A stretch of 64,000 bases of DNA from Azolla caroliniana (Eukaryota; Plantae; Polypodiophyta). The position numbers and the translations under genes are program-made. Within the stretch, counting starts at the first letter, position 1. Each line of letters begins with the position of its first letter. The DNA is taken from positions 10,292,001 through 10,356,000 of the forward strand of contig JBHGNT010000012.1 of the NCBI GenBank assembly GCA_043228905.1. Direction: 5' to 3'. The notes under the pieces are model-generated. The model saw only the letters and a list, made by a program, of their open reading frames with translations. It had not been told where the DNA came from and searched no databases. Shown in pieces: positions 1 to 52,381 of the stretch.

Positions 1-85
1 GGAAAGCTGGAACTCCAGAGGTAAGGGAAAAGAAAAGGCGACTCCGGCATTCAAGCTCGCCTCGGACATAGAACAACAAACCGAC

Positions 86-3700: not shown

Positions 3701-4406
3701 CATAACCGGTTACATGCCGGTAGAACTCATGACCGGACAAGCACCGGTAATGCCGAGGGAAACCGCGATCGCAACATGGACAGTGCTACCGTGGAAGGAA
3801 GAGATGAGCCGGGAAGAACTACTAGCGGTCCGGATACGACAACTAGAGGGAAAACCGGCAGACATAGCAGAAGCAATACGCCGACAACAAGAAGCACGAT
3901 TAAGGAACAAAAGCCGGTTCGACACAAAGCACCGACTACGACCGAGGAGGATTGAAGAAGGAGATTGGGTGATCGTCTATGACAGTAGTTTGGACCATCA
4001 ACATACAACGATGCGGAAATTCGCGAAAAGGTGGTTCGGGCCATACGAGGTTCAGAAAGTCTTCGACAACAGAACGTACCGACTGTCCGAGTTGGATGGA
4101 ACAATACTACGAGTGCCTATAGCCGGGAAGTGGGTGAAGATTTTCAAGAAGCGGACCGACGACAAACCCTATGTGATCCAAGCCAAGGCCGACAACGAGG
4201 AGCAATCGGATGAAGACCACGGTGATGCGAGAAGCGAAGAAAGTGGATTACAACTCATAGTCGGCATAAGGGGAGAATCGGAGGAAGCTTTGGGTGAAGA
4301 CGGATATGGGGGATCGAGAACTTCGGCACATACCGGAGGATGTGCGGGTTCGGAGGGGGCGAATGTCGTAGTGTATTCCGCACACTACGTGAAAACCATA
4401 AAATAA
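756..4406 (+). pseudogene. Element A Pol (RT, RNase H, integrase) with premature TAG at 3654-3656
   Basis: RT motifs DLYSGYDQ, LPQGATNS, FLDD; RNase H VDTS, KRELWGV, NAVADMLSR; integrase HHCC, ADRGE, NGKIER, WFGPYEV. ORF 3657-4406 continues in the same frame after the stop. No chromodomain. Confidence 0.92.
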
Positions 4407-5068
4407 TATATCCGATTTTAGATACATATAACTAGATAAATAATATATCAAATGAATTTATCACGTGCATAGGGCAGGATTCGAACCATGCACCTCCACG
4501 TAGATAAACCCCAACTTTACCATTGTAATAACTTATCTTTAGTATTATAAATATAGATTTAATACGTATAAGACCTTTATTTACACATACCTTTATTAAA
4601 AGGTAAAAATCATGTATTCTTTAGAGTGTGAATATTTTATTTACACGTGACATTAAAAGTGACTCATGCACATCTAGCGTGCATGAGCCCTATATTTAGG
4701 AAATGACAAAGCATCACATGCACATTTAGTGTGCATGGACACTTTAGGTGAAAAAGCATGAAGCCATGCTTAGCCTCTTTCATCTTTATATAAGGAGGAG
4801 AGAAATATGTATATGGTTGTTGATTAATATACAAGGATTGATCAATCTAATATATTCGTGGGATTCACGAATTTTGCCATCTAAATTACTCTTATAATCT
4901 AAATATTATTTGAATTACACTAAACTCGTGGGATTCACGAGATTCCTATCTTACTTCTCTTCCTATTATTCATAACTAGCCTTAAGTGTTATTCCTCTTC
5001 CTCCTAGTCCAAAACCTCGGCGGTTCCCACCTGACTCACGCAACGATCCGGAGCCGAAGGGCTCGACA
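4364..5068 (+). repeat. 3' LTR of element A (705 bp)
   Basis: Follows the PPT; TGTCG...CGACA termini; TATA-like TTTATATAAG near 4785. Confidence 0.88.
4466..4535 (-). other. Degenerate tRNA-like (A-box/B-box) cassette in LTR A
   Basis: Minus strand reads TACAATGGTAAAG...GGTGCATGGTTCGAATCCTGC; 34 nt between the D-loop GG and TTCGA; anticodon and acceptor stems decayed. Confidence 0.6.
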
Positions 5069-7790
5069 ACGGCATAGAATGTCGTCAGGCTTTCAACTAC
5101 TTGGCCGAGAAAGTGCCCCGCTTGGTCGCTTATTAATTCGATTGGGCATCCGTAACGACACCAGATGTATTCGTATAGAAATTTTGTCGTTGATGCAACG
5201 GTGTTGTCTTTTAAGGTTTTGGCCTCCACCCATTTCGTGCAGTAATCCGTCGCAACGATGACATACCGATTACCTGTTCTCATTGTCGGTGTTTTGAACG
5301 GTCCAACAAAGTCCAGCCCCCACTTTTGGAATGGTTCGAGCGGTAGTACAGGCTGGTGTGGCATCCGAGCTTGCTCCGTTGGCTGGCCCATTCGCTGGCA
5401 TAGGTCACATTCTTTTGCGTACCATACAACATCTCTTAATGTAGTTGGCCACCATAGGCCACTTTGCCATATTTTCCTGGCCGTCGCATCTCCGGCATAG
5501 TGACCTCCGGCAACTCCGCAGTGGGCTTCCCTCAATATGAGGTCCTTTTCATCGCTGCGCACAGCCCGTCTCCATATGCCGTCCGCGCCCCTGTGGTAAA
5601 GTGTGTCTTGCAGTAAGCAGAAATGTCGGCTTTGCACCGCCAGGCGTTTCCTTTCGTCCCGGTTCATCTCCTCCGGAGGCAGTCCTGTACTCAGAAACTG
5701 GTGCATATTTGTGAGCCACTTGTCTTCCTGTGCCACCGTTTGATCTGCTGCCGTTTCCGTAGTGACTCGAAACAACTCCGCATCCGGAAACTCGTCCGCT
5801 ACTCCGTCGCCCGTCTCTCCGGACTCTAATCGGCTTAAATAATCCGCTACGGCATGCTGTATACCGGGTCGGTGGAATATTTCGAACTCGAATTCCTGTA
5901 ACACTAAGGTCCACCGGGCCAACTTACCGGTGAGTGACGCCTTGGACACCAGGTAGAGGAGTGCCGAATGATCTACATGGAAGGAAAACTTCCTTCCCAA
6001 TAAATAATGCCGAACCTTTGTCACATTGTAGATCATCCCTAGAGTTTCCCGTTCCGTGGTAGAGTAGTTTCGTTCCGGTTGGGATAGCTTTCGGCTGGCA
6101 TAGTACACTGGCCAGTACCACTTTGGCTCCGTAAGTTGCATCAGTGCACTTCCGATTGGGATGTCGGAGGCATCCACGAATACATGAAATTCTTTACTCC
6201 AATCCGGAGGCTGCACTACCGGTGCTTGCGACAATAGTACCTTGAGGGCCCTATATGCCCTATCCTCGGTGTCAGTCCACTGGAATGGTGTTCGATGTAC
6301 CGCGACATGGAATGGTGTAGCCAGGTCAGCCAAGTATCGGAGCATCTGGCTGTGCCACCGGATCTGGCCTAAGAACCGGCTCAATGCCTTTGTCGTTGCT
6401 GGCGCCGGTGCTTCTAATATGGCTTTCATTTTGTCTGGGTCAACGACAATGCCTTCCTTGCTCACAATATGTCCTAGTAGGGTTCCACTGGACATGCCAA
6501 ATACACACTTCGCCGGATTCAAGCTTAGCCGGTACGCTCTACACTTTTCAAGACAAAGACGGAGGTGCTGCAAATGATCCTTTTCCCGACTATAGACGGC
6601 AAAATCGTCAAGGAAAACCTACATAAAAGCCGGGATATATTCACCAAAGATTTCCATGATGATTCGTTGGAACGTTGCCGGCCACAAACACCCCCCATTC
6701 GGTGACGAAAGTCGTTTTCTCTTGGTCATCGGGGTGCATCCGGATCTGATTATACCCGTTGAATCCGTCTAGAAAGCTATAGACCTCATGGCCAGCGACG
6801 GCATCCAACACCCATCTGTGAACGGAAGTGGAAACGCATCCGTTACCGTAGCCGCATTCAGTTTCCGGTAGTCCACACAAACTCGAATTTTTCCGTTCTT
6901 CTTCGGTACGACTATGATCGGGCTCAGCCATGTCGCTTTCTTTACCAGACAGATAAAGCCAACTCTTAGCAGTTTGTCGATTTCCTCCTTGACTTTGGCG
7001 GCATAATTGGGATTCATCCGGTACCGTCTTTGTGCCACTGGTTTCGCGTCCTTGCTCAAGTGAATCTGATGCTGGTATAACTGAGGGTCGAGCCCTCACA
7101 TGTCTTCGTATGACCAGGCAAACACGTCGCGAAATTCCGTGAGAAGTGTGATCATTGCCGTTTTGTCTTCGGACTTCATCTCCTTGGCGATGTGCACCGG
7201 TTTTGCTTCGTCCGTGGTCCCTAGGTTCACCTCTTCAAGTTGCGACGCTTTTACGCGCTGTGAAACGGCCATTTCCCGTTCCAACGGTTCTTGCGCTTGC
7301 CGTAACTCTCGGATTGCATCCTTATCCGGTTCTGCTTCAGTCTCTTCCGGCTGCGGTAAGTATGGTGCTACTGCTTCGACAATGTCAATTTCGAAGAGGG
7401 GTACGATCTTCGGGTTTTCCTGCAAGTACTGAGCTTCTTCTTCATCAACTAACCCTTCTAGCATGTTGATGCACTCTGCATACAACAGTGTACATTCCTT
7501 GCCAGTGCTCGTCCTTGGCTGTGTTGGTACACGTACCTTGGCTTTTCCTCGCCGGAAGGTAATTATATTTTTCCTCCAATTATGTTTGATATGTGCCATT
7601 TTCAACCATGGCCGCCCCAGCAATAGCGGGTATGCGCCTTGTGCCTGTAATTGTGGCACTACTGTGGAGATGTGAAATGTATGACCGCCAACGGTGACTT
7701 CTAATTTACGTATTAATCCTGTTGGCCGCACTGAGCTTGTATCGGCCATCCGTAACCAGAACGGACACGGCTCCCACTCGTGGATTCCCC
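5069..7790 (-). pseudogene. Element B Pol (protease C-terminal part, RT, RNase H, integrase), frameshifted
   Basis: LLLGRPWL; CVDYRKLN, LDGFNGYNQI, FLDD; FVDASD, HAVADYLSR; HHCC, WGLDFVGP, ISDQAGHF. The protease DSG region appears deleted near 7800. Confidence 0.88.
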
Positions 7791-7811
7791 GGGCATCACA
7801 CGTCCGGAGAC

Positions 7812-9370
7812 TTATTCCATGCCCTTCGACCTTGTGGTCACCTGCTGCAAATCTGCCACTTTAGGGACTACCATATTTACTATCGGTCGTTTGTCATAGC
7901 TCTTCGTCGGGCATTGATTACTATAATGGCCTTCCTGTCGGTAGTAGTAGCAGTAGGCTTTCCGGGTATTGCTGGATTCGGCATTGTTTGTTGTACCCGG
8001 GGCAGGTCCTGTGGTAAGCGCGGGGTTTTGGGCCGGTTGGCTGCTTGAAGCTCCTTGTTCCGGATCCCGTGGGTGGCCGCCTTTTTTGAAATGCCGTTTT
8101 CTGTTATAGTTCTTCTTATTGTGGTACTCTTGACGAGGTTGGTCGTTATATCTGCCATATTCCTCCCGTTGCTGACGATACCCGGGGGAGTGCTCCCGGT
8201 CGTAATGTTCGTATCGTCTATTGTAATCCTGGTACTGATCATTTCTATCGTACCGGTCATAGTTATCCCGCTGATCACCATACCGGACATCATTCTCCCG
8301 TCGATCGCCATACCGGACATCCTGTGCCGATTGGTATCGGTCCATTCGCCGCCAGCGTTCCTCTTCTTCATCCCAGCTGCTGCGTGGCTCTATTTGTCGG
8401 ACGGGTGGTGCTTGCCGGTTCAATAGATTATACTCGCACCTATCCGTCGTATGACCCTTGGATTGACAGATTACACATTGCGTCCTCATAGTGCATTCTT
8501 GTGCCGAGTGTTCGGAATTCAAGCAGGTTGTGCACTATATTGCTTGCCGAAACCGGAGGTCTTCATCGGACGGTAACGCCCGTTGGAGTGCTCCCAGTGT
8601 GAGCCAGGAGCTTGTCTTTTCCATCTCTCTCACCCGGTCAATGACCTGGTCGATGGTACTTGCGCGGAAGTCAATTACCGTGCAAACCGTGTGTAGGGGT
8701 TCCTGGAGGGCATTTAGGAATATAGTCCGTAATTCCTCCTCCGGGGGTGCGCGGGCAAGCTGACTATGCATCCGTTGAAACCAGATGACAAACTGGGGAA
8801 TGCTCTCCCCTACCTCCTGTCGGATGGTATAAAACAAGCCCACCATTACTGTCTGGTCCACCTCCTTGTGGAAAAAATGCAAGAATTTAGCTATAAAATC
8901 TGTGAAGGTGGTGATGGTAGACAGGTCCTGCGTCCGGTGCCATCTTGCTACCGGTCCCTCCAATGTGACGCCAAATTCCGCTATCTTAGAGCGTTCCTCT
9001 TCCTCCGGGGTCAATCGCTGGGACACATGGTTTGCTTCCCATGTCTGTTCAAAGGCGTGAACATGAGCTTCCGCGTCCGGATCATCTCTATACTTGGAGT
9101 ACTGGAACGGCATGTCGTCGTCCGGTATCGGTGCGCGAGCTGGTGGTGTTGGTGGTCGTTCCTGGTTTTTCTCCGGCGTCGGTGGTCGTTCCTAATTTGT
9201 CTCCGACGTCAGTGGTCTTTCCTCTTCTTTTGGTGACGGAGGCTTCTCCTCCTCGACTTCCGGTGTCGGAGGTCGCTCTTCCTCTGCTTCTGGTTCCAGA
9301 GGTTCCAGCCTTAGCACTTCCGGTTCCGGTGTCAGTAAGGTGTCTGATCCTTCGTCCTCCGGTCCGCCCG
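7812..9370 (-). pseudogene. Element B Gag (central and C-terminal part)
   Basis: KYRDDPDAEAHVHAFEQTW retrotransposon gag domain; knuckles CVICQSKGHTTDRC and CYYYRQEGHYSNQC; in-frame stop near 8535. Confidence 0.85.
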
Positions 9371-9844
9371 TGTTATGTACACATAACGTTGGTGAGGGTA
9401 GGTCACTAATATTTACATTAGTGAAGGGTATGTTCACTATTATTAAAAAGGGGACTAATGATTGGATAGAATGAATGATATGTGCATGCACTATCATGAT
9501 TTAGACAACCAATGAATAGAGAGCCTTTTAGAAAGGCACATCTATTCAAGGGGCCTAGGAAAAGGTATAAATATGAGGCTTAGCTACCCTCATAAGGATC
9601 ATCACGTCGGAAGGCTGCTGGCGTAGACACCGGTGGTGCGGGCTAGGCTTTCGTCTCGACGATCGTGTTTATCTCTTCCAAGGTATTAGTCATCCTAATA
9701 TCCGGCGGTATGGGACGTCGGTGGTAGGTTGGCTATGTCTAGATCATAGCTCGGGGGTGGTCGGGTGGAACGGGTTCTTCTATCCAATCTATTTTCTTCC
9801 TTTTTACTTGATTTGGTCTATTGATTAGTAATAGACTCTTAACA
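9371..9844 (+). repeat. 5' LTR of element C
   Basis: TGTTA...TAACA, TATAAATA near 9566, followed by the tRNA-iMet PBS. Confidence 0.97.
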
Positions 9845-10089
9845 GTGGTATCAGAGCTTTTACTAACAATTTTTTTGTTGTTTTGATGTTTTTTGCGTGT
9901 GAGCGAGGGGGATCTAACAAGGCTCGTCATGCTCTTCTCAGGATCAAAACAACACTCTAAACCCGGTATTCTTCTTTTTTGATCTCTTCTCTTTTTTTAT
10001 TATGCGTTCTTTATGGTCGAATCAAATTGGTATTACGTTTTATTCTCTTTCTTTCTACCTCCTACTACGCTACGATTTTACTTATTATT

Positions 10090-10615
10090 ATGCATCGGGC
10101 CGAGCATGTTTGCACTAATCGCACACGCTCAACTCATGGCCTTTTGCATATTGCGATATATATCCCACTCTCTCCTCTCTTGAACTCTTACGATAATAAT
10201 TATTCTTGTGCATTGGGTCGAGCGTGTTTGCTCTAATCGCACACGCTTATCTCATGGCCGTTTTGCAGATGATGTTGAGTATACCACTCTTCCCCTCTAT
10301 GGAGCCATCACTTGGCCGATTCTTCTAAGGGATGATGTGGCCTTGACGAGGTGTATGTTGCCTACCTATGCCACTCTACTCTCTATTAAGCCATCAATTG
10401 GCCGATTCTATGGGATGTTGTGGCCTTGACAAGGTATATGTAGCTTACATATGCCACTTTCCTTTTTAATTAGCCATCAATTGGCCGATTCTAAGGGATG
10501 ATGTGGCCTTGACAAGGTATATGTAGCTTACATATGCCACTTTCCTCTTTAATTAGCCATTACTTGGCCGATTCTAGGGATATGTGGTGGTCTTGAGGAG
10601 GTGCATGTCAACTAC
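10090..10615 (+). repeat. Tandem repeats in the leader of element C
   Basis: Two copies of TGCATyGGGyCGAGCrTGTTTGCwCTAATCGCACACGC, then 4-5 copies of a ~70-100 bp unit GCCATCAATTGGCCGATTCTAAGGGATGATGTGGCCTTGAC. Confidence 0.85.
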
Positions 10616-11730
10616 CCTAGGGTTTCGTATCTTAGGGCATGTTTGATTCCATACACCTAATTGTTGATTATTCTAATTAAATTTTAATTTCATAAGTATT
10701 GTTTCACTTATATGATTTTCTAGTAATTATTATTTACCCGCCCACAATTAACTCTCCTTTTTCCACTTCCTTTTCATGTATAAAGTATTTACATCGTTTA
10801 TTTTAATGTAACCTTTACGTGTAGACTATTTTTTCGTATGGAGTGGCTTGTTGAACGATTTTTATTTTTTTTTCAACGGGTCATCTAGGTTTAACTCTTA
10901 TCATCAAGCCTTAGAAAACGAGTAAAACCATATGAGTTCCCTTATTGATGTTTTACTCATGGATTTGAGTATTACATCTTTGCGCACAACACCGTCATCA
11001 CTTGTATCAATTTGTGGCTTATGTCACAATTGTGCAAGTTATAACACTCATATTGGGATGTATATGTGCATACCTCGCACTTCCCATTTATTTGTGACAT
11101 TGTTTTTTTCGTAGGTAACACATGGGTTCTTTTTTTTTACCCTTGTTTTCGTCACTACTTAACTCTTATGAGTAGTGCCTTATTTTATCATTTTATCATC
11201 ACGTTTGCTTATTGCTCGCAAGACTAGAATATTACTTGTGAGTGCACTTGTTTTTTCACGTAATACACTTTCTCGACCATATAATACATGATGGGTTGGC
11301 ATTAATATAAGGCTATCTAGGAAATTTCATTGATGTAAGAACCATCGTTGAGCCTCGGGGAGCCGCCATGATTACTCAAGATAGAGATCCGAGAAATACA
11401 TCTTAGCTATGTTTTCCCCCATGGTTTTTAAAACACCATAGTGTTACCATAGTTATCGGATCTCGAATCACATCTCATATGTCTAGAGGGGTAAAGACAT
11501 GAGATACTTTCTTGGATAAAGTTCTTTCAATCAAAATTTCAAGCATTTGGCTTGGCTTGGTCGTTGGGAGTCTCACTTTGAGCTTCATCCCAAGCCCGAT
11601 GCAGTAAAAAATTGGTTATGTCGGTCGTGAGTTAGGTGGCCGAGCTGCTGCTTGGTGGCGTGGCCTAAGGACCGCAAAAAACTTACCCACAACTTGGGAA
11701 GGTTTCGTTGATGTTTTTAAGAAACAATTC

Positions 11731-14700
11731 TTGCAGCCACCTTCTCAAACCGAACAAGCGCAACACTTGCTCACATTGTCTAGTAAGCCATTTACCTCTC
11801 TCGAGGATTATGTGCATCACGCTCGGACCCAGATCCAAAAATCGGGACTTACGGGTGAGAAATGGTTTGTCGCTTGTTTTTTGAATGGTATTCCCAATGG
11901 GGATTATCATTGGATTGTCCATGACAAGGACCCCACAACTTTCGAGGAAGCCGTCAACATTGTGCTGCGATACCATAGGACTTCCAAGAAAGACCACAAT
12001 AAACCTGAGTTCGCCAAAACTCTGAATGTCAAGTTCATTGGGAAACGTAAGCAATCCAGTGACACTCTTGACCGCGACTCAAAGAAACCGAACCTCTTCT
12101 GTGCATATTGCAAGAAGCGGGGCCACACAAAGGATACCTGTCGTCGTCTTGAGAGGAAGTCAATGAACACCCCTCCTCAAGACAAATCTATGAGTCACGC
12201 AGGTGAGTCTTTTGATATTGTTGAAGTTCATACCAATCACTTAAGTTTATGTGAATGCACTTTTCCTTCACATTTACTTGGACCTAATGATTTACTCCGA
12301 GCAGTCGGATATATCAATGGAACACAAGCACATTTCTTGTTTGATTCCGGTAGTTCTCACAATTTTCTTAATGATCACTTTGTGCAGCAAATGGAGCTCC
12401 ACATAAACGCAAGTGATCATATCTATCAAGTTCACATGGCAAATGGAAACGTTCAATACATCAGTGGCATTGTTTGTCAACTGCCAATTCAAATAGATAC
12501 TTATTTGGAGAAGCTTGACTTTCATGTTATGAAATTACAATCCGCAGATGTCATTTTAGGATATCCTTGGTTTTTTAATAAAAACCCTTCTTTGTCCATT
12601 GATTGGGTTAATCACTCAATCACATTTGAACTTAATAATTGTAAACATTTTATTCAATGTTCCAAACTTCCTTCTCATTCACTTGTGTCTTCTAAATCTT
12701 TAAGTGAGTATTCTAGTTCATTAATTTATTCGTGTGTAATTGATCCTGCGGTTCAATTTTATTATTTTAATATTGACGCCACACAATTACCACATTTTGA
12801 GCAACGATTACTCGACTCTATTTTAGAGGATTTTCAAGATGTGTTTCCTACGGAATTACCGCTTACTTTACCACCTAAACGTAATGTGGACCATCAAATT
12901 GAACTCATCCCTGGGGCTGCTCCTGTGAGCATTCCACCTTACCGACTTAGTCGATTAGAAGAGGATGAGATCGCTAAACAACTTAAGGAATACTTGAGTA
13001 TGGGCCACATTAGGTATAGTAAATCACCTTGGGGTGCGCCAGTTCTATTAGTCAAGAAGAAGGAAGGTTCGTGGCGAATGTGTATCAATTATCGCCGTTT
13101 GAATAAAATGACAATTAAGAATGCATATCCATTACCTCGTGCCGATGATTTGATTGATCGTTTGCACGGGGCTCGATATTTTACGAAAATTGACTTACGA
13201 ACTGGTTATCATCAGATTCGCATCGCCGAGGATGATATTCCTAAAACCGCTTTTCGTACGCGCTATGGCCATTATGAGTTTTTAGTCATGCCATTTGGGT
13301 TGACTAATGCTCCAGCCACATTCCAACAAGCGATGAATGATGTTTTCCGAGATCAACTTGGTGATTTTGTTGTCGTCTTCTTGGATGATATTTTGATATA
13401 TAGCCGTACCTTGCAAGATCATGTTCAACATGTTCGATTTGTTTTGCGAAAGTTGCGTGACAACTCTTTCTATGCAAAACATTCAAAATGTGACTTCTTC
13501 CAAAAATCTATTGTGTACCTAGGTCATTTAATTACAGAAAATGGCGTTGAAATTGAACCTTCTCGTATTGAAAAGGTTAAACTTTGGCCAATTCCTCGTA
13601 ATATTCGTGAACTTAGATCATTCTTAGGGTTTGTTGGATTTTTACGAAAATCAATTCGTAACTATTCCAAATTGACTACGCCATTAACTGACCTTTTAAA
13701 AGGTCATCCACGTAAGTCTGTCAAACCAATTTCATGGAATGAACAACTTGACAAATCATTTGAGACACTCAAGGAGCATGTGTGTCAGGCTCCCACTCTT
13801 CTATTACCAGACCCTTCTAAGCCTTTCTCAATTGAAACCGATGCTAGTGATTATGCTATTGGTGTCGTTCTTTATCAAGGTGGTCACCCTATTGCTTTTG
13901 AAAGTAAGAAGCTTGATGCTGCTCAATCTCGGTATTCGGTTCAAGAGAAAGAGTTGTTTGCGGTGATACACGCACTTAAAACATGGAGGCACTATCTCTA
14001 TGGAAATAAATTTGTGGTTACAACAGACCATCAATCATTAAAGTATTTTTGTGACCAGCCCGATCTTGTTGGTCGTAAAGGCCGTTGGGCTGACCTTATG
14101 CAAGATTTTGATTTTTCCATACGATATCGCAAGGGTTCTATGAACACCGTTGCTGATGCTCTTAGTCGCATTAAAGAAGTTAACATGCTTAGCTTCACGG
14201 AAATAAAATCTGATCTTTTAGATCACCTTCGAGGGAAATACCTTGATGACAGTTATTTCTCAAAATACTGGACGAAAGCCGAATCTGGTTTAGATGCCGA
14301 TACTAGCACCCTACCCTCGAAGGCGACCTTTCACATTACAAACGGTTTGCTCTACCGTAGTGGAAAGGTCTGTGTTCCAGATTTACCAAATGTTAAACAG
14401 AAAATTTTTCATGAATGTCATGATGCACCATCTGCTGGTCATCCTGGAATACAACGCACACTCGTTCTCATCTCGTGTACTTTTTTCTGGCCTAAGATGC
14501 GCTCTGACGTGCATAAATACGTAACTCAATGCTTACAATGTCAGATTAATAAGTCGGAACGACTTAAAGCTGCTGGTCTTTTACATCCCTTAGATATTCC
14601 CAACAATAAATGGGAAAGTATCTCGATGGATTTTATTGTTAGTTTACCTCGTACACAGAGGGGTCATGATGCCATATGGGTTGTCGTTGACAGGCTAACA

Positions 14701-15687
14701 AAATTAGCTAGATTTATTCCTACAAAAACCACGGTAACCGCTCAACAGTTGGCTTATCAATTTGTTGATGAGTTATTTCGTTTTTATGGATTACCGATGG
14801 ATATTGTTAGTGATCGAGATTCCAAGTTTACTAGTGACTTTTGGACTCAGGTCTTTAAGAAACTAGAAACTACGTTGAGCATGAGTTCCGCAGATCATCC
14901 TCAGTCTGATGGACAAACTGAACGAGTTAATCAAATTATTGAGGACATGCTTCGAGCTTATGTAGCAAAAACCCCTTCTAAGTGGGAGCAATACCTTCCT
15001 ATCTTAGAATTTGCCTATAATAGCTCTAAACATACATCCACTGGATATAGTCCTTTTATGTTGATGTATGGTTTTCAGCCACGTGCCCCAGTTGATGTCA
15101 CGATTCATCGTGATACATTTGACAATACACGCAATTTTTTGCAAGACATGAACCAAATATTGCATATTGCCAAAGAAAATGTCAAGACAACTCAAGATCG
15201 TGCTCGATTTTATGCTGATCAAGATAGACGTCCTCGTGCATTTACTATTGGTCAAAAAGTTTTTTTGCGTGTCCCGACTGATTCTACGTCATTATCTATG
15301 GGCAAGTGCGCTAAGTTAGCCCCACGATATTGTGGCCCATTTGAAATCCTTAAGCAAGTTGGGTCATCTGCTTATCACCTTGCCTTACCTCGTAACGTTG
15401 GTAATCATCCTGTTTTTCACGTCAGTCGTCTAAAACCATTTTTAGGCTCTGGTGATAACACCATCACAATCCAAGATCTTGTAACATTAGAGGATTTTTC
15501 TTACAAACCTCATGTTCCTGAACAAATTCTTGATTCTCGTACTAAACGTTTACGTTCTAAAGAGATTCGGCTATTCAAGATCAAATGGATGGATAAACCT
15601 ATTGATGATGCCACATGGGAACGCGAGCATTCGCTTAAGGCACAATTTCCTCACTTTATATTGCAAGAGTGCAATCTTTTGAAGTAG
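11731..15687 (+). CDS. Element C Gag-Pol polyprotein with C-terminal chromodomain (gag 5' end disrupted)
   Basis: [14 protein letters not shown] knuckle, FDSGSSHNF protease, FLDD RT, ETDASD RNase H, HHCC and SDRD integrase, GPF motif, PEQILDSR...KW...ATWE chromodomain. Confidence 0.93.
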
Positions 15688-15694
15688 GGGAGTA

Positions 15695-16168
15695 TGTTAT
15701 GTACACATAACGTTGGTGAGGGTAGGTCACTAATATTTACATTAGTGAAGGGTATGTTCACTATTATTAAAAAGGGGACTAATGATTGGATAGAATGAAT
15801 GATATGTGCATGCACTATCATGATTTAGACAACCAATGAATAGAGAGCCTTTTAGAAAGGCACATCTATTCAAGGGGCCTAGGAAAAGGTATAAATATGA
15901 GGCTTAGCTACCCTCATAAGGATCATCACGTCGGAAGGCTGCTGGCGTAGACACCGGTGGTGCGGGCTAGGCTTTCGTCTCGACGATCGTGTTTATCTCT
16001 TCCAAGGTATTAGTCATCCTAATATCCGGCGGTATGGGACGTCGGTGGTAGGTTGGCTATGTCTAGATCATAGCTCGGGGGTGGTCGGGTGGAACGGGTT
16101 CTTCTATCCAATCTATTTTCTTCCTTTTTACTTGATTTGGTCTATTGATTAGTAATAGACTCTTAACA
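15695..16168 (+). repeat. 3' LTR of element C
   Basis: Matches 9371-9844; preceded by the PPT and followed by TSD GCCCG. Confidence 0.97.
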
Positions 16169-16507
16169 GCCCGGGGTGTCGTTGTTGCTACGGTAGTTCG
16201 TATGCACGTTGTATCCCCCTTCGGAATCCGATTCATACGCTGAAAAGGCTTCTGCTTCGCCTTCTCCGCTTGCCAACGCCTGGAGAAGGGATTCGGTTTC
16301 CCGGAGGCTGCTTAGGCTGTTGTCGTCGTCCGGGTGCGATGTTTGCTGTAACCAGAGGGACTCCTCTGCTACTCTCCGGATTACGTTGGAAAACGAGCGA
16401 TCCGTTCTAATTTCCTGCACCGCTTGCTGGAAAGCCTCACGTCTCCTTTGCCTTTCAGCAAGGCGTTGAGTTTGATCTGTAACCAGGTTGTGCGTTGATC
16501 TAGTCAT
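16169..16507 (-). pseudogene. Element B Gag N-terminus
   Basis: ATG just downstream of the PBS (MTRSTHN...); similar to the element E leader near 51860; joins 9370 once C is removed. Confidence 0.75.
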
Positions 16508-16560
16508 CCATTCATGCCGTCGTTCGCTACAAAAACAGGAATCGTGGTCGCCAAAAACTG

Positions 16561-16995
16561 TGTTAACTCTTAGGGCCGGACAATGGCCTAACGTAGGGTG
16601 TCTACGAAAGACACTTCACCAAAGGGGTGTTACGGCAAGAGGATTAGGCTCAACGATTAATCCGACTTAATTAGGTTACTTAGCAAGATCGTCCTTAATA
16701 ATCACACGCGTAAGATATAACAATGAATGCAGAATGGCAATTAACACAGAGAGATAAAAACACTAAGCTTCATTAATTATCCGCTCCACATTACATTGTA
16801 TCCGGGCCTTTAAATAGGTTTCCGGTTTGTATTACAAAACGGTGCCATTCGCACCTGTTCGGGATCGGTCCGGATCCGGAACGGCATACCGATTCCGGTC
16901 CGTCCGTCCACACTAATAGCTCACTTACAACCATTCCTTAATAATTAAATAACTCCTTTGTTTCACACTCTGGACTCCTTTGCCGGCCGGTAACA
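16561..16995 (-). repeat. 5' LTR of element B (435 bp)
   Basis: TGTTA...TAACA termini next to the PBS; shares blocks with element E LTRs (CACTTCACCAAAGGG, CGGCATACCGATTCC). Confidence 0.88.
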
Positions 16996-17890: not shown

Positions 17891-17934
17891 ACAACGTGGG
17901 CCATCTCTAGTTGAGTATTCTGGCTTAGATTACT

Positions 17935-18835
17935 ACCACTGTTGTTAAACCCTATTGAGTCCACTCCTCCATTACCGCCATTCTACACTCAATTATCGGC
18001 ACTGTGGTCCAAGTATCATCTACCATTGTTCGATCCAACGGAGTTCACTCCTCCATTGCCGCCATTCTACACTCAATTGTCGCCAATGTTCAGTCCAAGC
18101 ATCATCTGCCAAGTTCACTCCTCCATTGCCGCCACTCTACACTCAGTTGTCGCTACTATGCAGGTTGTATATTGCTGCCACTTTTTGATTTGACGGAGTT
18201 AACTCCTTCTCCACTGCCGTCATTCTACTCTCAGTTGTCGTCATTGTGCGTTCCAAGCATCATCTGCCACTGTTCGATCTGACGGAGTTCACTCCTCCAT
18301 TGCCATCATTCTACACTGAGATGCCACTACTATTCGGTTTGGGATTCCTGCCACTGTTCGATTTGACGGAGTTCACTCATCCATTGCCATCATTCTATAC
18401 TTAGTTGTCGCTACTATTCGGTCGTGTATTGCTACCACTTTTCGATTCGAGGGAGTTCACTCCTTCTCCACTGCCGCCATTGTACTCTCAGTTGCCGTCA
18501 CTGTGCGTTCCAAGCATCAACTGCCACTGTTCGATCGGACGGAGTTCACTCCTCCATTGCCATCATTCTACACTCAGTTGCCCCAACTATTCGGTCCTGG
18601 ACTGCTGCCACTTTTCGATTTGACGGAGTTCACTCATCCATTGCCATCATTCTACACTCAGTTGCCGCTACTGTTCGGTCATGCATTGCTGCCACTTTTG
18701 CATCCGAAGGAGTTCACTCCTTCTCCATTGCTGCCATTCTACTCTCAGTTGCCGTCACTCCTCCACTGCCGCGATTCTACACTCAGTTGCTACCACTATT
18801 CGGCCCTGGATTACCACCATTGTTCGGTCTTGGAT
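17935..18835. repeat. Tandem array of ~80-bp units (about 11 copies) upstream of the transposase
   Basis: Recurrent GGAGTTCACTCCTCCATTGCCrCCATTCTACACTCAGTTG...CTGCCACTkTTCGAT. Confidence 0.92.
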
Positions 18836-30655: not shown

Positions 30656-31093
30656 TGTTACGGGCATGACCATATAATATCCCATGGTCAGAATTTACTG
30701 TAGTATTCTATACATGTGGATAAGTGTGAGGGTTAAACGAGAGTGTAAAGAAGGGGAGGATTACTTTTAATCCTCAGGATTGAGACAACCCATTAGGCCA
30801 AGTGTGAGCATGACTGGGGGCCTTGGGCACTCACTACAAGAGTTGACCCACCACAAGACAGAGTCTCGACGTAGTCAACAAGATAATGAAATGAGGGTAG
30901 CTAGGCCGCTTATTTATAGCAATACCGAAGACCCCCAGCCATGTTCACACTTGGCCTAATGGGTTGTCTCAATCCCGAGGATTAAAAGTAATCCTCCCCT
31001 TCTTTACACTCCTTAACCCTCACACTTATCCACGTGTATAGAATACTACAATAAATTCAGACCACGGGATATTATATGGTCATGCCCGTAACA
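30656..31093. mobile_element. 438-bp foldback element with ~170-bp inverted arms
   Basis: TGTTACGGGCATGACCATATAATATCCC...GGGATATTATATGGTCATGCCCGTAACA; TSD ATTGG at 30651-30655 and 31094-31098. Confidence 0.92.
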
Positions 31094-35164: not shown

Positions 35165-38100
35165 CTACAAGATTATTTTGTAAGGTCTCATCATCGCATT
35201 GTCCTCATGATCGAGTATCTGCAACCAGAAAAGAGCTCTCATTTTAAATATGTTGAATACACCATTTGAAGCATTTTAAGACATCATTTTGTTGTTACAT
35301 GTGTATTCCACAATCCACTAACGCAAAAGCTCCAAGAGTGCTAGATTCTAATAGTGTAATGTTATTAATGTCAACATTGTGTACTATATAAGATTTTAAA
35401 ACCACAGATTATAGATAAAATACATTTTCCTATGTTATTGTCATGGTGTGCCCACTCTTGGGTTGTGGAAAGGGATATGTTGCATTACTTGTTAGCGTCA
35501 CGAATGAAAATGATATTATTTTCAACCCTCTTCAATTGTGGACAAGTAATTTGTCTATATTTTAAGGACCAAATGGATGTTGTGAATGGTGTCAAATTGA
35601 GAATATAAAGAATATTTAATTTCAAGTCCATTGCTCTAGAATTAAACCCATCCTTTAAATATTAGAACACACAAACTTTCTCAACACACTTATCAAGTAT
35701 GCATGTTAAAACATTTCTCATAAGCATAATGATAATTCTTTCACATTGAGCATTCGTGTATAGTATCTTGACTCTTGTTCTTTTCTTGCAACTCAACCAC
35801 GCTTTTTAGGTGGTGTCCCTAAGGATAAAGAAACACTAATTATTTTTTAAGTCTATCAATATTGTATGATTAGTATTGTCACCCCTAGTTTGTCATTCCT
35901 ATTAATGGATAGCATTATGCATACCTACTATCTTATATCTTACACAAACCTCTATTTTGGAAATGTAAACTTGATACAAAATAAACGTTCAATGTATGTA
36001 AGATAATCAAAAGTGATTTCTTTGTACTCCGTGGTTTAAGAAAATAGTGAGAGAGAAAGGAAAAACTCACATGGCAATGATATGTATACCCAGGTTCTAG
36101 AGATGGGTCGAAGGGAAACGGTTGTGAATCCAATAGCGAAAAACGCACCAAGATTGTTGTCATGTAAGAAGGTTTCATCTTGAAAACATTCTTCCAACCA
36201 GCTTCATTTGGTGGTGGTGGCTCAAGAACTCCATCGAGAAACTTTTCAATTTGGCAAGGTTCCACATTGTTGTGTTCCACAACACACTCACTTAGTTGGT
36301 CCAAATTCTTTATTTTTTGTTGACTTTGAACTTGGAAACCCGCAAGATGAACATGAAAGGGATGGTTATCAGGAGTGAGATTGATAATGCGCCAAACCTC
36401 AGTGGTTCCATTTTTTGGTTGCTCTGTCACTGGGTCGGTAAATTGCTTGAAATTTATCAATAGGTGCGTTGGTTCTCCTGTAAATGAGTCAAATTCATAT
36501 AGAACTATGCTCCTCGTCTTAGTTTCCTTTGTGATTTTCAATTTTTCCACTTGCATCAACTTCAATGGGACTTTTGCTTTGTCCTTCAAATGCCTCTTTC
36601 CTACGATAAATTTCATCACTTTTTTATTGATATCATCAACACTATCGCCATCCGGATAGGGAAAGTTTGCACTATTTTCCAAGATTATATGCTGAGCTTT
36701 AGATTTCGAGAAATCAATTATAACATCTACAATCTCTGATGGAGCAACCAATATCTCTTTTACACTTATTGGTCTCTCGAAGTAAAAGCTATCGGATCCA
36801 ATTTGTACAAAATGGAGACCATTGTCCAATGAAAAGCTGTAGAATCTAGCATTGCTTGCATTGATTATTCTAAATCTATATTTTCTTCGTTGAACCCTCA
36901 TGTATGGCCATGCTTTCCCATTCACTATAATAACATTCCCAAAATACTCTGGCTACATAAGAGGAGCAAACGAAGTATTTGTCACTACCAAGTAAATTAA
37001 TATTCTTTTTGGAAATGCAAATAAGCCATTTAAGTTACACCTAAAGACATTGAATATTGTGCAATCATTGTGATAAGGATGTAAAAGGCCTATATTGGTT
37101 AATTTCTTGATAAATGCAATTGAGTAAAGAATTGTTACTTTGTACATTATTAACATGAAGCACGATGTTTCTACCATGCTCCTTGGTATGCTTACCATGG
37201 GAACGCAAAACTATGATTAAGGAAAATGCATATACAATCAGTGGTCGATATAAAGTGTAGTAACATGTGTATGATATAAATTTCTTGAATTATCAGGGAT
37301 GAATTTTTCCTAACATGTGATGTTACATCTAGAATGATGTCGTTGCTATAAAGTCTTTCATATGGATGAACATATTGAAATGATATGGATAAAATAATTC
37401 TATAAGAGATATATCATGGCATATATACATACATATATGTGTGTATAACATAGAGAAGAAAGAGAAGTGTTGGTGTAGGTTTACCTGCCACTCTGGGTGT
37501 ATATTAGGGTTATCCCCCGTAGAATTTATATAAATTTGCCCATTCTTCGTAAAGCTTCTATCCATGACAACAAGTTGCACGTCAAATATTTCACGAGGGA
37601 GTTTCCATGTGCGGAGTTCGAGGGCGGGGTTGACAACTTTGTATGCGCCAATCAAGCCGGCCAAGAGGTTGAGACGTGTGTACGCCATTGCATGGTCATG
37701 GTACCACATGTTGACCGTCCCCTTAGAGTTCTCATACTCATAAACATGTTTCGTCCACTTGGGGCCCGTCTCCCGAAAGCTACGCGTGAACCATGAGAGG
37801 GCATTACCATCACTACCTGGCTCACTTATGCTACCATGCAAGTGTACTACCGTGGGGACACCGACTAAATTGAGGTAAGGTTCGCCCAATGTAGTGTCTG
37901 TGGTGAAGATATGTTGGTTGGGCAAGTGGTTCTCCCATTTGATATATGTCTTCACCCCGACCATTGCCTGTATGCTTGGCCCGGGCACTGTAGCTTCTTC
38001 CTTTGTGGTTCCATATGCGAACACTCGCGATGGTGGAAGGTCTCTATGGAATTTCTAGCAGAATGATATCACCCGACCAAAAAATTGTTAGCATTTGAAG

Positions 38101-45859: not shown

Positions 45860-46602
45860 AACCATAATTAAGAAATTATAAAAACTTATACTTAACCAAC
45901 ACATAATTAAGTACGGACTTGCGAAGTCCACCAGTTAGATGTGGTTGCTAAAACTAGAAAGAAATGGATCCTTGATCCTTATCGTTCAATTGCTCATATG
46001 TGTGATATCCTATGGTTATACGCAAAAGTTCCTGTTGCAAGATTAACATAGGATCCGGGGGGTTGTCTTTGGTCACAATCCTTGGGGGAAAAGATTGTAA
46101 ATGTCCCCTTCTTTCAGTACTCAATAAAACTTGGAAGATCATTACTACTCTCTCGGAATGTAACGATACCAGCATCTCAGAAACATTGGACCAACTGGGG
46201 TATCTCAACTTTGCATTTGAGAACTTGTGGGAAATGGATCTGGTCATTCAAGGGGCCAACTAAATTTATTCTCTTTCGATGGCTATTAGTGCACATGGCA
46301 CTACTTGTTGGTCATTCATTGAAAGCGAATGTAGCACCCAATTTGTGGCAATGTGGTTTTTGCCATGAACATCAGGAGACTACCAAGTATGTCCTATGGT
46401 ATTGTCCCTTTGCTCAACAAGTATGGAAGAAAGGCATGTCTTTGTTCCTAACAATCAATCTAGGTTGCCTATTCTCATGGGATTGGAGATGTGGGGAGTA
46501 TTACATTCTAACTTGATGTTGTATGAGGCAAACAATGTTCATGAGGCAAACACAAAAGCAGGTGCAATCTGTCTAGATTTGGAAAATAGTAACCATAGTA
46601 AC
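45860..46602 (+). mobile_element. LINE ORF2 zf-RVT fragment, left half (split by element E)
   Basis: KWIWSFKGPTKFILFRWL...CGFC...ETTKYVLWYCP...MWGVLH. Confidence 0.75.
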
Positions 46603-47114
46603 TGTCACTCCTTGGGGCCGGACTAGCCCTAGCACAAGGTGTCCCTCTAGATCACTTCACCAAAGGGTGGTGCAAGTGGGGTAGGCACAGACCGTAATGC
46701 AAATGTATTCCTAACCGGATGTTAACTGGTCTGGTTATTGATCATAATACACGCGTAAGATAGGTTATATTAAGCACAAAACGGTAATTAACTAAGAGCT
46801 TTAAAGATTAAGAAGATGTAGCAGAACATCACTTTCATTAATAAACCACTAATTGATAACAATCTAGCCGGGTCCTTTTATAGGTGACCAACTTTGGGTG
46901 TCAATCGGTGCCAACCAGCATCCGGCTGCGAATCGGTCTGGATCCGGATCGGCATACCGATTCCAGGTTCGTCTGTTCGCTTCTCAAAATAATAATAATT
47001 ATAGATTAATTATCCCTTTCCCATTCTAGACTTAATCTGGCTTTTGAGTCTTTGCCGGCCAACACATGGCACGCCTGTGGGACAGTACCTTGTATGTCGA
47101 ATCCCACAGTTCGC

Positions 47115-49870
47115 CCTTCAGTCTTCCTCCAGAATGTCCATAATGCTATGGTCTAAGGGTTCTAAAGGCTCATTGGGTAGTTGCTCCATCATCTGCTGTT
47201 TTTGTTGCTCCTGCTCCTACTGCTACTGTTATTGCTGCTTCTTCTTCTACTTCTACTCCTGCTCCTCTGGCATCTCCGGTTCCACTTGTCTCTCTGGTTC
47301 TGTTGGTATCTCATGTTCCGCTGGTCTCTCTGGTTCCGCTGGTCTCGCCAGTTCCACCGGTCCCGAGGTTTCCGGTTCTGGTTCTATCGGTTTGGGCTCC
47401 TCCTGCTGATGGTTTTCCATGTGCAGGCTTCCATTTTCGGCTGCTCCTCCGAAGTTATGTTCGGCTAGCTTCCCCCAATTTCGGCTTCATTTAGCGCCTG
47501 CTCCGAAGACTGCTCCTCATCACTGATGTTGATCGTCGTAGTTCTTCTGACCACTTCTTGCCATTGTTGTTCTCGTTCATACCGCTCGAGCTGGAGTTGG
47601 GTATCCAGCTGGTCGTCGTCCAGCTATTCCACCAATCGCCTCACTGCTGTCAATTGGTCCCCAACTAACGATAGGAAGTCGTCCGAAAATTCCTCCCTAA
47701 TAGCTACAATGTTTTCCTCGTCCAGTTTATAGAAATCGTCGTCATCCTTCCGCCGGTTCTCCGCATCCACTCTTAGCAATTGTAACTCCACTGCTTGCTT
47801 AGCCCATTGAGATCACCATTGAACCGAACTTTCTTCCACCAGTCACTTCGTCCGGTCTCTCCATGTCCGCACTAGATCACGGATTCGCCCCAACCCCATC
47901 TTCGACTTGTTCTCCACGACCTGTTTTTCGTCCTTCAATTGTTTGATCAGGTTCGCGGTTGCCACTTCTTGGCTTCTATAATGCATGAGTTGGGTCTGAT
48001 AGGTCGTCTGAACTTTGTTCAAAGCCATTGTAGTGCGCTCCGTTGCCTCCGAGTGCTGCCGGGTCAACTCTACCCGTTCTTTCGCCGCTTCCGCCAGTCG
48101 TTTCGCTGCTTCAACCGCCTTCGACTGCTCAGTGATCAATTTCTTGTGTTCCGCATCCAAGTCTTTGAGATCCCAGTGCAATCACTCAAAGTCGTCTGTT
48201 TTTTGTTTCAGCCATTGGTAGATCAGACATTGAGCATGGTCTTCTCTGTCCTTTTGTTGCCGGAGGTCTTCCTTGAGTCGCTCGATCTCTACTTTCGTCG
48301 AGTGCCGGAGTTTGTCCTTTTCTTGCAGGAGTTTTTCTTTTTCTTCCTTCAGCCGGTCATATGCTTGATGACCTTCACGCAGGCTTTTTTCGACTCGCCG
48401 GAGACTTTCGGCTAATTTCCTTTGCTATTCCTCAGCTACCTTCTTCCCTTCACGTTCTCGCACCCTTAAGGCCTCTTGGGCTTCCAATTCTTCTTTCAGC
48501 GTGGTGAGTTCTTGTTCCTGTGCCTTATTCTTATCCGGGACTGTTTCAATCACCGAGGTCTTATTATTCTGTAACTCATCGGTGCCTCCAGTTCTAATTG
48601 TTGTGGTCCTTCGATGATAAGCTTCCGCCGCCTCTTCTCTGGTCCTTTCCACTTCTTGTTCCATGCTCCGGATTCTTGACTGGGCCTTCTCTAGCTCTTC
48701 GGTTGTGGCGAGCAACCGGTCCAAATGTACTCTCTCTTTCGCTTTTATGTGGCACACCACCCCGATCACTTGTTCTCCTATCCAGCATAACCATTGGCTG
48801 CCAGTGCCTTGTTGTCGGGCCGGTTTTGGTCGTGGGGTGGCTTCTGCACTCGTTGCGAACCTCTTCTGCGTGGTTAGCGGCAAATCCGGTTCTTGTTGTT
48901 GCTGTTGCATCGACGACACTGGCAATTCGATCACTGGTCTTTGAACATCCGGTTCCGCTATTTCTTATCGCACAGGTGCTACTAACACTGGCTCTGATTG
49001 ACCCGGTTCTGACTCCTCCCTTGGTTGCGGCTCCTCGGGGCGGGGCTTTGGTAAACTGTCCTTTACCGGACTTGCTTCCTCCCCATCTGTGCCCCTCGTC
49101 ACGTGTCTGTTTGCGACGTACTAGGGGCTCGACAGGTTCTTCTTCCTGCTCCTTTGCTAGGGTGCCACTATTGATTAGCGCCGTCAAGGGGTCATGCTCC
49201 TGTGGTTGTTTCGATGGTTGTTCGGGCCAACGCAACTTAATTTTTACGGGTCTCACCGGTGTCTCCTTCTTTGCCATATGCTTCCGGCTAGGCCGCTTTC
49301 CATCCGATCACTTGTTTAGCCAGTAGTTGCTGCCTTTTTGACGAGGTGTTGGGGGTTGATTAAGTCGGTCGGCCTCGCTTCTTCGGCTGCATCGGCTCTA
49401 CCGACGGTACTAAAAGAGTGAGCCATTGCGCCACCGCCATCCACATCTTCTTGTCATCCTTTACTGAGGCTATGACCGCGCTTAGACTGTCAGCGATGAT
49501 GACTGGCCAATCCACCTGGACCCCCTCATAAGTTGCTATCATAAAACTAGTTCTGTTCTTTGGCATAGCCGGGGGTCAAGGGTGTACATGGCCATACTCA
49601 TGAAGCACACGAGCAACCTCTTAGAATAGAATGTCCTCGCCACCTTCCGTGCAGTACGCCTTGCTGGCCAGGGAGTACTCACCGAAGAACTTCGTGAGCA
49701 TCTCCGGTGACGGGTTGTCGATCGAGAATAATCCGCCCTCTGGTAGGCTGGTCATGCCGCGGATGACCTCTTTTGTGATGACCTCCGTATCGATCTCTTG
49801 CACAACTCTCTCCGCCTCATTGTGCGGAGGTGCCTCAATGATTCTTAGGAACCCTTCCAAGCCGTATTGT
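47115..49870 (-). pseudogene. Element E accessory 3' ORF (large, coiled-coil rich, unknown function), disrupted
   Basis: Consecutive minus-strand fragments LEGFLRII..., SFMIATYEGVQVDWPVIIADSL, E/K-rich segments and PEPVELARPAEPE repeats, ending DILEED*; no RT or integrase motifs. Confidence 0.6.
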
Positions 49871-49879
49871 GTCGGTGAG

Positions 49880-51862
49880 CTCCACCGGTGCCTCCATTTG
49901 TTGTTTGACTTCGGCTGCATTCCTCTTGTTCGCCTTTTCCACCCATTCAGTGGCCCGTTTCCGGATAGCCTCTTGCGCTTCCCACTCCGTCGTCTTTCCT
50001 TTTGACCTGGTGGTGACTTGTTGTATATCCATGACTTTTGCTACCACCATATTGACCGCCGGTCGTTTTTCATTACTTTTCACCAGGCATTGGTTGCTGT
50101 AATGGCCTTCATGCCGGCAATAATAACAATACGCTTTCCGGGTATTGTTGGATTTTGCTTGTGGCCCAGTACTTGGTTGAAATCTTGTCGCCGGTCCATT
50201 AGGCTCTTCCCTTCGTCTTTGTTTTGGCTGGGTGCCACTCAAACCTCTCTCCGGCTCTTGGGGGTATTCCTTCGCCGGTTCCTGATGCTCCTCCTTTCAG
50301 TTGTTTCGTTTCTTATTGAAGTGTCGGTGGTTCTTGTATCCCTGTCGGCGGCGATCTTCGTAATCCCCGCGCTGATCTTCTCTCCTCTGATTGTAACTTG
50401 GAGAGTGATCGCGATCAGAACGATCACCATTATAATCCTGGTACTTGTCGTACCGGTCCCGGTCATAAGTGTCCCTTCTGTCGGTGTATCAGACATCCTG
50501 TACTGGTCGGTAATGCTCGTCTCGATGCCAACGTTCCTCTTCCTCTCGCCGGTCGCTGCGGGTATCGATTTGTCTTACCTATGCCGCTTGCCGGTTCAAT
50601 AAATTATATTCGCATCGGTCCATTGTGTGCGACCTGGAGTGGCATAACATGCATTGGGACCGCATGGTACATTCTATTGCAGAGTGCCTGACATTGAGAC
50701 AAGTCGTACATTGTATGGCTTGCCGAAAACGTAGGTCTTCGTCTGTCGGTAAGGCACGTTGGAGTGCCCCCATTGTTAGCCATGAGCTTGTTTTCTCCAT
50801 CTCCCTGACCTGGTCAATCGTGCTAGTGTGGAAATCAATGATTGCGCACACCGTACGTAGGGGTTCCCTGAGTGCTGCTAGGAATATTGCTTTAGCCTCT
50901 ACTTCCGATGGTGCTTGATTTAGCTGGCTGTGCATTCGCTGGAACCGGATTACGAATTGTTGAATGGTTTCCGTAGGTTCCTGTCGTATGGTGCAGAATA
51001 AGCCAACCATCTCCCGTTGATCCACCTCCTTATTGAAGAATTGTAAAAATCTGGTTTTCAAGTCTTCAAACGTAGTAATGGTGCCGGGAAGGTGCGTCAA
51101 GCACCATCGCGCGGCTGGTCCTTCCAAAGTCATCCTGAATTCTCAAATCTTCGAGCGTTCTGCTTCGGGTGCGGTTAAGCGTTGCGTCACATGGTTTGCT
51201 TCCCATGTTTGTAAAAATGCATACACATGGGCTTCCGCGTCCGGATCATCCCGGTACTTGGGATATTGGAACGACATGTCGTCGTCCGGTGTCGGAACCC
51301 GACCTAGTGGTGACGAAGGTCTCTCCTCCTCTTCTGTTGGAAGCGGTGTCAGAGGTCTTTCCTCCCCTTCTTTCGGTGTCGAAGGTCTTCCCTCGTCCTC
51401 CGTCAGAGGCTCGTGTGGCGGTGTTGGAGGTTGATCCGCCTCATGCCTTCCTGAAGCTTCCAGTTCTGTTATCGCCGGTTCTGGTGTCGGTATATTATCC
51501 AATTCCTCGTTCTCTGGTCCATCCAGGATGTCGTGACTGCTGCAGTAATTCGAGTGTGCGTTGTATTCGTTGTCTGAATCCAATTCAAACACCTAAAATT
51601 GCTCCGAATCGCCTTCTCCCGCTGCTAATGCCTGCAGGATTAATTCTGCTTCTCTGAAACTACTTAAACTGCTTCCTCTGTCTGGATGGGAATTTTGCTG
51701 CACACGGAGTGACTCCGCGACCACTCGCTAGATCACCTTTGAAAAGGATCGATCCGCGCGGATTTCTTCCGCCACCAGGTGGTACGCTTCACGCTTCCGC
51801 AGTTGTTCGGTGAGTCGTCACGCTCGCTCCTTTGCTGGGTCATTTGGTGGTCTAGTCATCCA
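49880..51862 (-). pseudogene. Element E gag
   Basis: KYRDDPDAEAHVYAFLQTWEANH, CYYCRHEGHYSNQC, QQVTTRSKG; collinear with element B gag; several frameshifts. Confidence 0.88.
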
Positions 51863-52381
51863 TGCCCCCCGTTGTTCACTGCGCTTTAGCAGGAATCGTG
51901 GTCGCCAAAAACTGTGTTACTCCTTGGGGCCGGACTAGCCCTAACACAGGGTGTCCCTTTAGGACACTTCACCAAAGGGTGGTGCAAGTGGGGTAGGCAC
52001 AAACCGTACTGCAAACGTATTACTAACCGGATGTTAACCGATTTGGTTATTGATCATAATACACGTGTAAGATAGGTTATATTAAGCACAGAATGGTAAT
52101 TAACTAAGAGCTTTAAAGATTAACAAGATGTAGCAGAACAACACTTTCATTAATAAACCGCTAATTGATTACAATCTAGTCGGGTCCTTTTATAGGTCAC
52201 CGGCTCTGGGTGCCAATCGGTGCCAACCAGCATCCGGCTACGAATCGGTCCGGATCTGGATCGGCATACCGATTCCGGGTCCATCTGTTCGCTTCTCAAA
52301 ATAATAATAATTATAGATTAATTATCCATTTCCCATTCTGAACTTAATCCGGCTTTTGAGTCTTTGCCAGCCAACGGTAAC

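Follow-up and report, generated by a model that had tools for sequence, protein, structure and literature searches.

LTR retrotransposons and retroviruses are treated as generally priming their plus strand from a polypurine tract (PPT). In canonical priming, e.g. in yeast Ty3, a tRNA is used at the primer-binding site (PBS), together with a PPT that is resistant to RNase H (both from the accessible text of PMC5371799). Second or bipartite PBSs occur in Ty1, Ty3 and Drosophila gypsy. According to the accessible parts of PMC5371799 and PMC1635307, these sites are on the RNA strand and exist alongside a normal PPT, their role being in minus-strand initiation or RNA bridging. For Athila, the accessible text of the ATHILAfinder preprint (10.64898/2026.03.20.713144) presents an LTR-PBS spacer of several bases as normal. 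The Athila PBS is mostly of the tRNA-Asp/Asn type, with Ala also found as a dominant type, and the PPT junction is conserved (97% in Brassicaceae), as far as covered by the accessible parts of this preprint and of PMC6317226.

We analyzed a 64-kb stretch of plant DNA (the window). It contains an LTR element, here called element E, that has a tRNA-complementary cassette where a PPT is expected. Element E belongs to an Athila-related Ty3/gypsy clade lacking a PPT, and sequence comparison makes it reasonably probable that the plus strand of its members is primed by a second host tRNA, namely tRNA-Arg(UCU) or a 3' fragment thereof. A preliminary description of the locus was not aware of any account of such priming. 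No description of a tRNA-primed plus strand, or of a tRNA site replacing the PPT, was found in the accessible literature, which included PMC6317226, PMC5371799, PMC1635307, PMC3185511, PMC3212995 and PMC11680832 and took in few subscription papers and Repbase reports. A motif search of five supplementary files of Neumann et al. 2019 (PMC6317226) was negative, and a literature search with the cassette sequence motif returned unrelated primers only.

The cassette of element E

The features of element E are listed in Table 1. Its two LTRs differ by 38 mismatches without any gap, and 5-bp copies of GTAAC are found on either side. The preliminary description had placed the element on the minus strand, and this is confirmed by gag, by a TATA-like box in the 3' LTR (TATAAAAG near 46885) and by the 5' PBS, read from 51907 to 51898. 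The stop codon of the 3' extra ORF is at 47118-47120. Pol is absent and gag abuts the 3' ORF; the polyprotein of a relative (P0002) aligns to element E over residues 1-634 only. Element E is a pol-less derivative that has kept gag, the 3' ORF, intact ends and the target duplication. Since its ends and target duplication are intact even though pol is missing, it was likely mobilised in trans. A bacterial promoter scan is inapplicable to a plant LTR and was set aside.

Table 1. Positions, in the 64-kb window, of the features of element E and of the related element B
Feature	Position	Strand	Remarks
Target-site duplication GTAAC, left copy	46598..46602	none	
3' LTR of element E	46603..47064	minus	462 nt
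Spacer between cassette and U3 start	47065..47066	minus	2 nt; identical in 5/5 cassettes
Cassette block 1, TGGCACGCCTGTGGGAC	47067..47083	+	complements tRNA-Arg(UCU) nt 76-59 on minus-strand cDNA
Cassette insert	47084..47096	+	13 nt, separates the partners of tRNA positions 59 and 58; small looped-out hairpin predicted (cofold, RNA parameters)
Cassette block 2	47097..47108	+	complements about nt 58-48 of the tRNA (T-loop and 5' T-stem)
3' extra ORF of element E, broken	47118..49920	minus	conserved N-terminal domain and coiled coil
gag of element E, broken	49898..51859	minus	
5' PBS of element E, TGGCGACCAC	51898..51907	minus	7 nt from LTR
5' LTR of element E	51915..52376	minus	
Target-site duplication GTAAC, right copy	52377..52381	none	
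Element B, related gag-pol copy	4969..16995	minus	5' LTR 16561-16995

No PPT precedes the 3' LTR of element E (8/15 purines, longest run 3). The figures are the same for the metagenome loci L004 and L010 (see below), while two further LTR elements of the window show 11-12/15 purines with runs of 7-8. The nearest runs of at least nine purines fall within the ORF. On the + strand of the window, which corresponds to minus-strand cDNA, the LTR terminus at 47064 reads CCAACA and is followed by the spacer CA and a cassette of 42 nt. The absence of a purine tract and the PBS-shaped + strand site 2 nt from the LTR end had both been noted in the preliminary description, and both hold. Its account of the tRNA-like site is correct for block 1 but overlooked the second block beyond the 13-nt insert.

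In block 1, one tRNA base is left without a partner. Position 47076 is a T in element E, while most copies have the C that is also found in the tRNA complement. The insert separates the partners of tRNA positions 59 and 58. A methylated A at tRNA position 58 stops reverse transcriptase (RT) and sets the 18-nt length of retroviral PBSs. By cofold, the duplex with the tRNA consists of about 10-11, then 7-8, then 9-12 paired bases. In both cassette types, the only ones known at full length, the insert forms a small looped-out hairpin, although the register differs between them. The substitutions in the cassette are mostly C-to-T on the DNA strand and preserve G-T pairing with the tRNA, but C-to-T is also the commonest decay mutation.

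The complementarity is far above background. When 50-mers were taken from the window every 10 nt on both strands, the cassette ranked first of 12,790 with a score of 35 (background mean 8.0, sd 3.5), and the best unrelated 50-mer scored 25.5. The duplex between cassette and tRNA 3' 30-mer has an energy of -44 to -48 kcal/mol in 5/5 cassettes (RNA:RNA parameters standing in for RNA:DNA), a value reached by none of 500 shuffles in each case. In all six controls with a PPT, the energy was at background level, and 41-309 of 500 shuffles did equally well. A search with a single motif gave one match, but 26 of 100 shuffles also have one at 3 mismatches, so that it is uninformative alone. Rfam returned no tRNA match at the cassette.

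Relatives, sister elements and sequencing runs

Element B is a relative in the same window. The Ty3/gypsy gag and the order PR-RT-RH-IN are present in element B and P0002, while element E itself has gag only; a second RNase H family (aRH domain) is found neither in element B nor in P0002. The PBS of element B is TGGCGACCAC (16553-16544, minus strand), with the same spacing to the LTR as in element E, and it is a putative tRNA-Arg(UCG) site. This PBS-shaped sequence was found in E, B, L002, L003, L004, L006 and L017. Element B is split by a chromovirus and is interrupted in its integrase by element A, and its 3' end is outside the window. The chromovirus (9371-16124, inside the gag of element B) has an open frame of 1359 codons, a normal PPT and LTRs that are identical over the 300 nt compared. 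Element A (1-4972) is a divergent Ty3/gypsy element with a normal PPT; it forms a long branch in the RT-RH-IN tree and has 25% identity to P0002. Elsewhere in the window, multicopper oxidase exons (35933-38054, minus strand) represent the only host-like gene among the 28 ORFs scanned. The stretches 17919-18826, 22967-23947 and 30656-31093 contain tandem arrays, with repeat units of about 84 nt and 52 nt, as well as a nested inverted repeat whose arms are 94-95% complementary.

Further relatives were drawn from metagenomes, namely from the best 80 of 445 confirmed stretches. The question whether relatives with gag-pol have a normal PPT could be answered: in 4/4 visible junctions among these best 80 (L003, L004, L008, L010), the cassette is present instead, 2 nt from the TGTTG start of the LTR. 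The remaining loci of the cassette clade end before their 3' LTR. L010 carries on a single contig the PBS, an open gag-pol frame of 1886 codons, an open 3' frame of 976 codons, the cassette and the LTR. The assemblies of L003 and L004 are collapsed: the end of the 3' ORF is followed by the cassette, the LTR, the PBS and gag-pol. L003 has one change within the CCA-pairing triplet. The 5' PBS begins with TGGCACGCC in L008 and L010, so that the same type of tRNA would serve at either end in these two. Their 5' PBS (TGGCACGCCTGG) is unlike that of B/E and of the PPT-bearing sisters, representing a PBS switch within the clade. L031 joins pol to the LTR interior, is uninformative and was set aside. 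Five scans of viral contigs found nothing. The RNase H catalytic residues are retained in the proteins of the cassette clade.

The RT-RH-IN tree (64 rows, midpoint root) was built without a curated reference set and excludes rows with fewer than 540 aligned residues, among them L004. B, L003, L008 and L010 share a clade of 13 rows (SH-aLRT 100). This clade is nested in a group of 47 rows that includes proteins from Marchantia, Riccia and Calypogeia (SH-aLRT 97), and the group is sister to five seed-plant proteins with an inferred Athila label (joint support 94). This placement would make a bryophyte the likely host. Five elements of the neighbouring branch (L045/L050, L047, L049/L052, L055 and L071; seven loci) have a normal PPT before the 3' LTR. 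Those with a readable 5' end (L047, L049/L052, L071) have a TGGYGACCA PBS, which is the same PBS type as in B/E. This count excludes L055b, L079 and L080, where the repeat pairs are not LTRs of the pol-bearing element, and L075, where the junction is at the contig edge; L070 has a PPT but belongs to the aRH branch and is not counted as a sister. Because elements of the neighbouring branch carry a PPT, the cassette is most likely a derived replacement, as read from the midpoint-rooted tree.

The 3' extra ORF of the clade (P0126, L010:6958-9885, L021, and the copy in element E) is in sense orientation and codes for roughly 970 aa (972 aa in one open relative), with a conserved N-terminal domain of 170 aa and a long coiled coil. 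Its stop codon is about 10-12 nt from the cassette. P0126 has no Pfam hit. Its similarity to an Atlas cluster with PF03078 (Athila ORF1) is a weak lead, with a look-alike score of only 0.85.

Contigs from four sequencing runs (four studies, two organism labels) were aligned to 46880-47330; the window may itself come from one of them, X1. The summed contig depth, which is not equivalent to copy number, is maximal within the cassette (47072-47087) in 4/4 runs. In X1, the cassette has a depth of 521,057, compared to 8,476-12,898 in the adjacent LTR bins. In the other three runs, it has 192,394, 286,488 and 11,197, compared to about 2,800-3,800, 1,500-2,700 and 36-112, respectively. The cassette is common to many more copies than its flanks. 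The conservation of the motif, which had still to be checked, is thus evident from the depth in four runs and from the alignment, and it extends across copies and subfamilies. In 90-93% of the depth, position 47076 is a C, so that the T of element E is a minor variant. Among the loose ends listed, LTR-side ends in X1 and X5 resemble the LTR end of element B, with an agreement of only about 0.55.

The tRNA was also searched for. With the insert removed, the two-block pattern has 26 prokaryotic matches, of which 23 lie inside tRNA genes called by ARAGORN (22 tRNA-Arg, one tRNA-Asp). A bacterial tRNA-Arg(UCU) gene (in L091) was used as bait for the DNA of the carriers. X1 (organism A) and X5 (organism B) have contigs identical to the 3' 27-30 nt of this tRNA (L091:148-177) at depths of 60-460, and one further contig of X5 differs from the bait at one position. 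The match to L091 ends at the variable loop, and the tRNA-Arg(UCU) of the carriers is known only as a piece of 27-37 nt on this bacterial bait. The tRNA 3' allele in both runs agrees with the majority allele of the cassette (C at 47076). A match of more than about 8 nt to a host tRNA had been in question; it comprises 10-11, 6-7 and about 10 nt of the tRNA-Arg(UCU) 3' end that is present in the DNA of the carriers. The CCA complement is included in much of the depth of the tRNA-identical contigs (982/1200 in X1, 220/518 in X5). In plants, CCA is usually not encoded in the tRNA gene. These contigs may, therefore, not all be tRNA genes; some may be tRNA retrocopies or come from other elements that carry an uninterrupted copy of the tRNA. 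No tRNA gene was found in the window or in the 32 metagenome loci scanned (of the best 80 of 445). Two presumed RNA runs gave no contig on the tRNA bait, which has no bearing on expression.

Candidate mechanism and alternatives

At the level of sequence, the PPT of this Athila-related clade is replaced clade-wide by a conserved tRNA-complementary cassette. Since there is no PPT, and since a two-part complement of tRNA-Arg(UCU) is located at the PPT position on minus-strand cDNA, priming of the plus strand by a tRNA is likely. The preliminary description had proposed a second tRNA for this role. The conserved cassette and the tRNA match support the proposal, and from these we infer the priming step itself. 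We consider it somewhat more probable than its opposite that the lineage dropped its PPT and primes both strands with host tRNAs, the two-block site being shaped around the modified tRNA position 58.

Minus-strand synthesis would begin at the 5' PBS, and RNase H would then clear the RNA from the minus-strand DNA. A Gag chaperone would anneal nt 76-59 and 58-48 of the tRNA to this DNA. The 13-nt insert would form a loop at tRNA position 58, where the methyl-A58 of the tRNA cannot pair. RT would extend the CCA end of the tRNA across the 2-nt spacer into U3. RNase H would remove the tRNA, as at the other end, and integrase would trim the 2 nt. The internal tRNA site would not be recopied from the tRNA in this cycle, so that only selection would maintain the cassette, in accordance with its tolerated bulge and its insert.

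Unlikely, but the main alternative, is priming in cis: an RNA of the element itself, resembling a tRNA 3' end with CCA, would survive RNase H and be cut immediately behind CCA, in the way a tRNA primer is removed, thus representing a PPT of unusual sequence. Such an RNA is already annealed to the minus-strand DNA at this site, so that no new annealing is needed, and the CCA end is 2 nt from U3 in 5/5 cassettes. The element RNA folds into a T-stem-like hairpin; the self-folded cassette also forms one, which a tRNA would have to invade. However, priming in cis accounts neither for the retention of block 2 (T-loop and 5' T-stem) nor for the location of the insert: between nt 59 and 58, it disrupts a T-loop mimic but is a harmless loop in a tRNA duplex. 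Also, pairing past the T-stem is not conserved in L004, and the stand-alone folding of the cassette RNA is no better than that of shuffles (z -0.09 to -1.18 in 5/5). As this folding is not significant, a reading of the cassette as RNA structure only is likewise unsupported.

RNA ends that resemble tRNAs can have other roles. The cassette might act in packaging, end-to-end pairing, translation, stability or contacts with tRNA-handling proteins, with a plus-strand primer that is non-specific or unseen, but we judge this to be improbable. In its favour, the 3' tRNA site of Drosophila gypsy is dispensable for cDNA synthesis, according to the accessible text of PMC1635307. The 3' sites of gypsy and Ty3, however, complement the tRNA on the RNA strand, while the cassette has the opposite polarity. 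The cassette is located exactly where the PPT would be, at a constant distance of 2 nt from the LTR. There is no conserved purine run near the LTR, and the copies show precise LTR ends and target duplications.

Very improbable is an antisense transcript from the 3' LTR on which the cassette would be an ordinary PBS, each strong-stop DNA being made on its own RNA template. Read as antisense, the cassette has the canonical PBS spacing of 2 nt, and the LTR contains an antisense AATAAA at 46840, both of which agree with such a transcript. Against it, the sense strand carries the TATA-like box as well as the two ORFs, and two templates would need co-packaging. A one-off rearrangement or a chance match in a dead copy, as might be suspected from the decayed, pol-less state of element E, is largely refuted by the cassettes in gag-pol contigs of other samples by the cassette being the deepest part in 4/4 runs, and by a match to the tRNA that is far above chance.

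If priming of the plus strand by a tRNA applies, an abundant natural lineage, with PPT-bearing sisters as controls, would indicate that this step can be rewired, and it would permit a direct test of primer choice by RT and RNase H. Host tRNA-Arg or its 3' fragments would be predicted to control both strands. Annotation tools may orient such elements wrongly, since of the two PBS-like sites the more convincing one points away from gag-pol. For element E, mis-orientation is ruled out, as the strand of the 5' PBS is also that of gag and pol, of the extra ORF and of the TATA-like box.

Comparison with known systems

Tat, Ogre and Retand carry the aRH domain that element B and P0002 lack, and aRH-bearing proteins are on another branch of the tree. 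Phygy and Selgy, the sequences of which are not part of the tree, have a 4-bp target duplication, a tRNA-Trp or tRNA-Ala PBS and no extra ORF, while element E has a 5-bp duplication and a 3' extra ORF. With Athila, as far as covered by the accessible parts of PMC6317226 and the ATHILAfinder preprint (10.64898/2026.03.20.713144), the elements share the absence of aRH, the 5-bp duplication and a 3' extra ORF in sense orientation, as well as a T-rich LTR-PBS spacer of several bases (the latter from the preprint). Unlike Athila in these sources, the cassette clade has putative Arg-type PBSs, which differ from the Athila sequence given in the preprint, has no PPT, and belongs to a separate group with liverwort proteins.

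Measured against the canonical LTR elements of the accessible literature, much is conventional: a 5' PBS adjacent to the 5' LTR, the gene order gag-PR-RT-RH-IN, TG...CA ends, a 5-bp duplication and a signal just before U3. This signal, however, is not rich in purines; instead, minus-strand DNA carries two blocks that are complementary to a tRNA. The bipartite PBSs of Ty1, Ty3 and gypsy, in the accessible descriptions, are similar in having two tRNA-pairing blocks that reach the T-arm and a tRNA-related site near the 3' end. The cassette differs from them in having the opposite polarity, in including the CCA end and in replacing the PPT.
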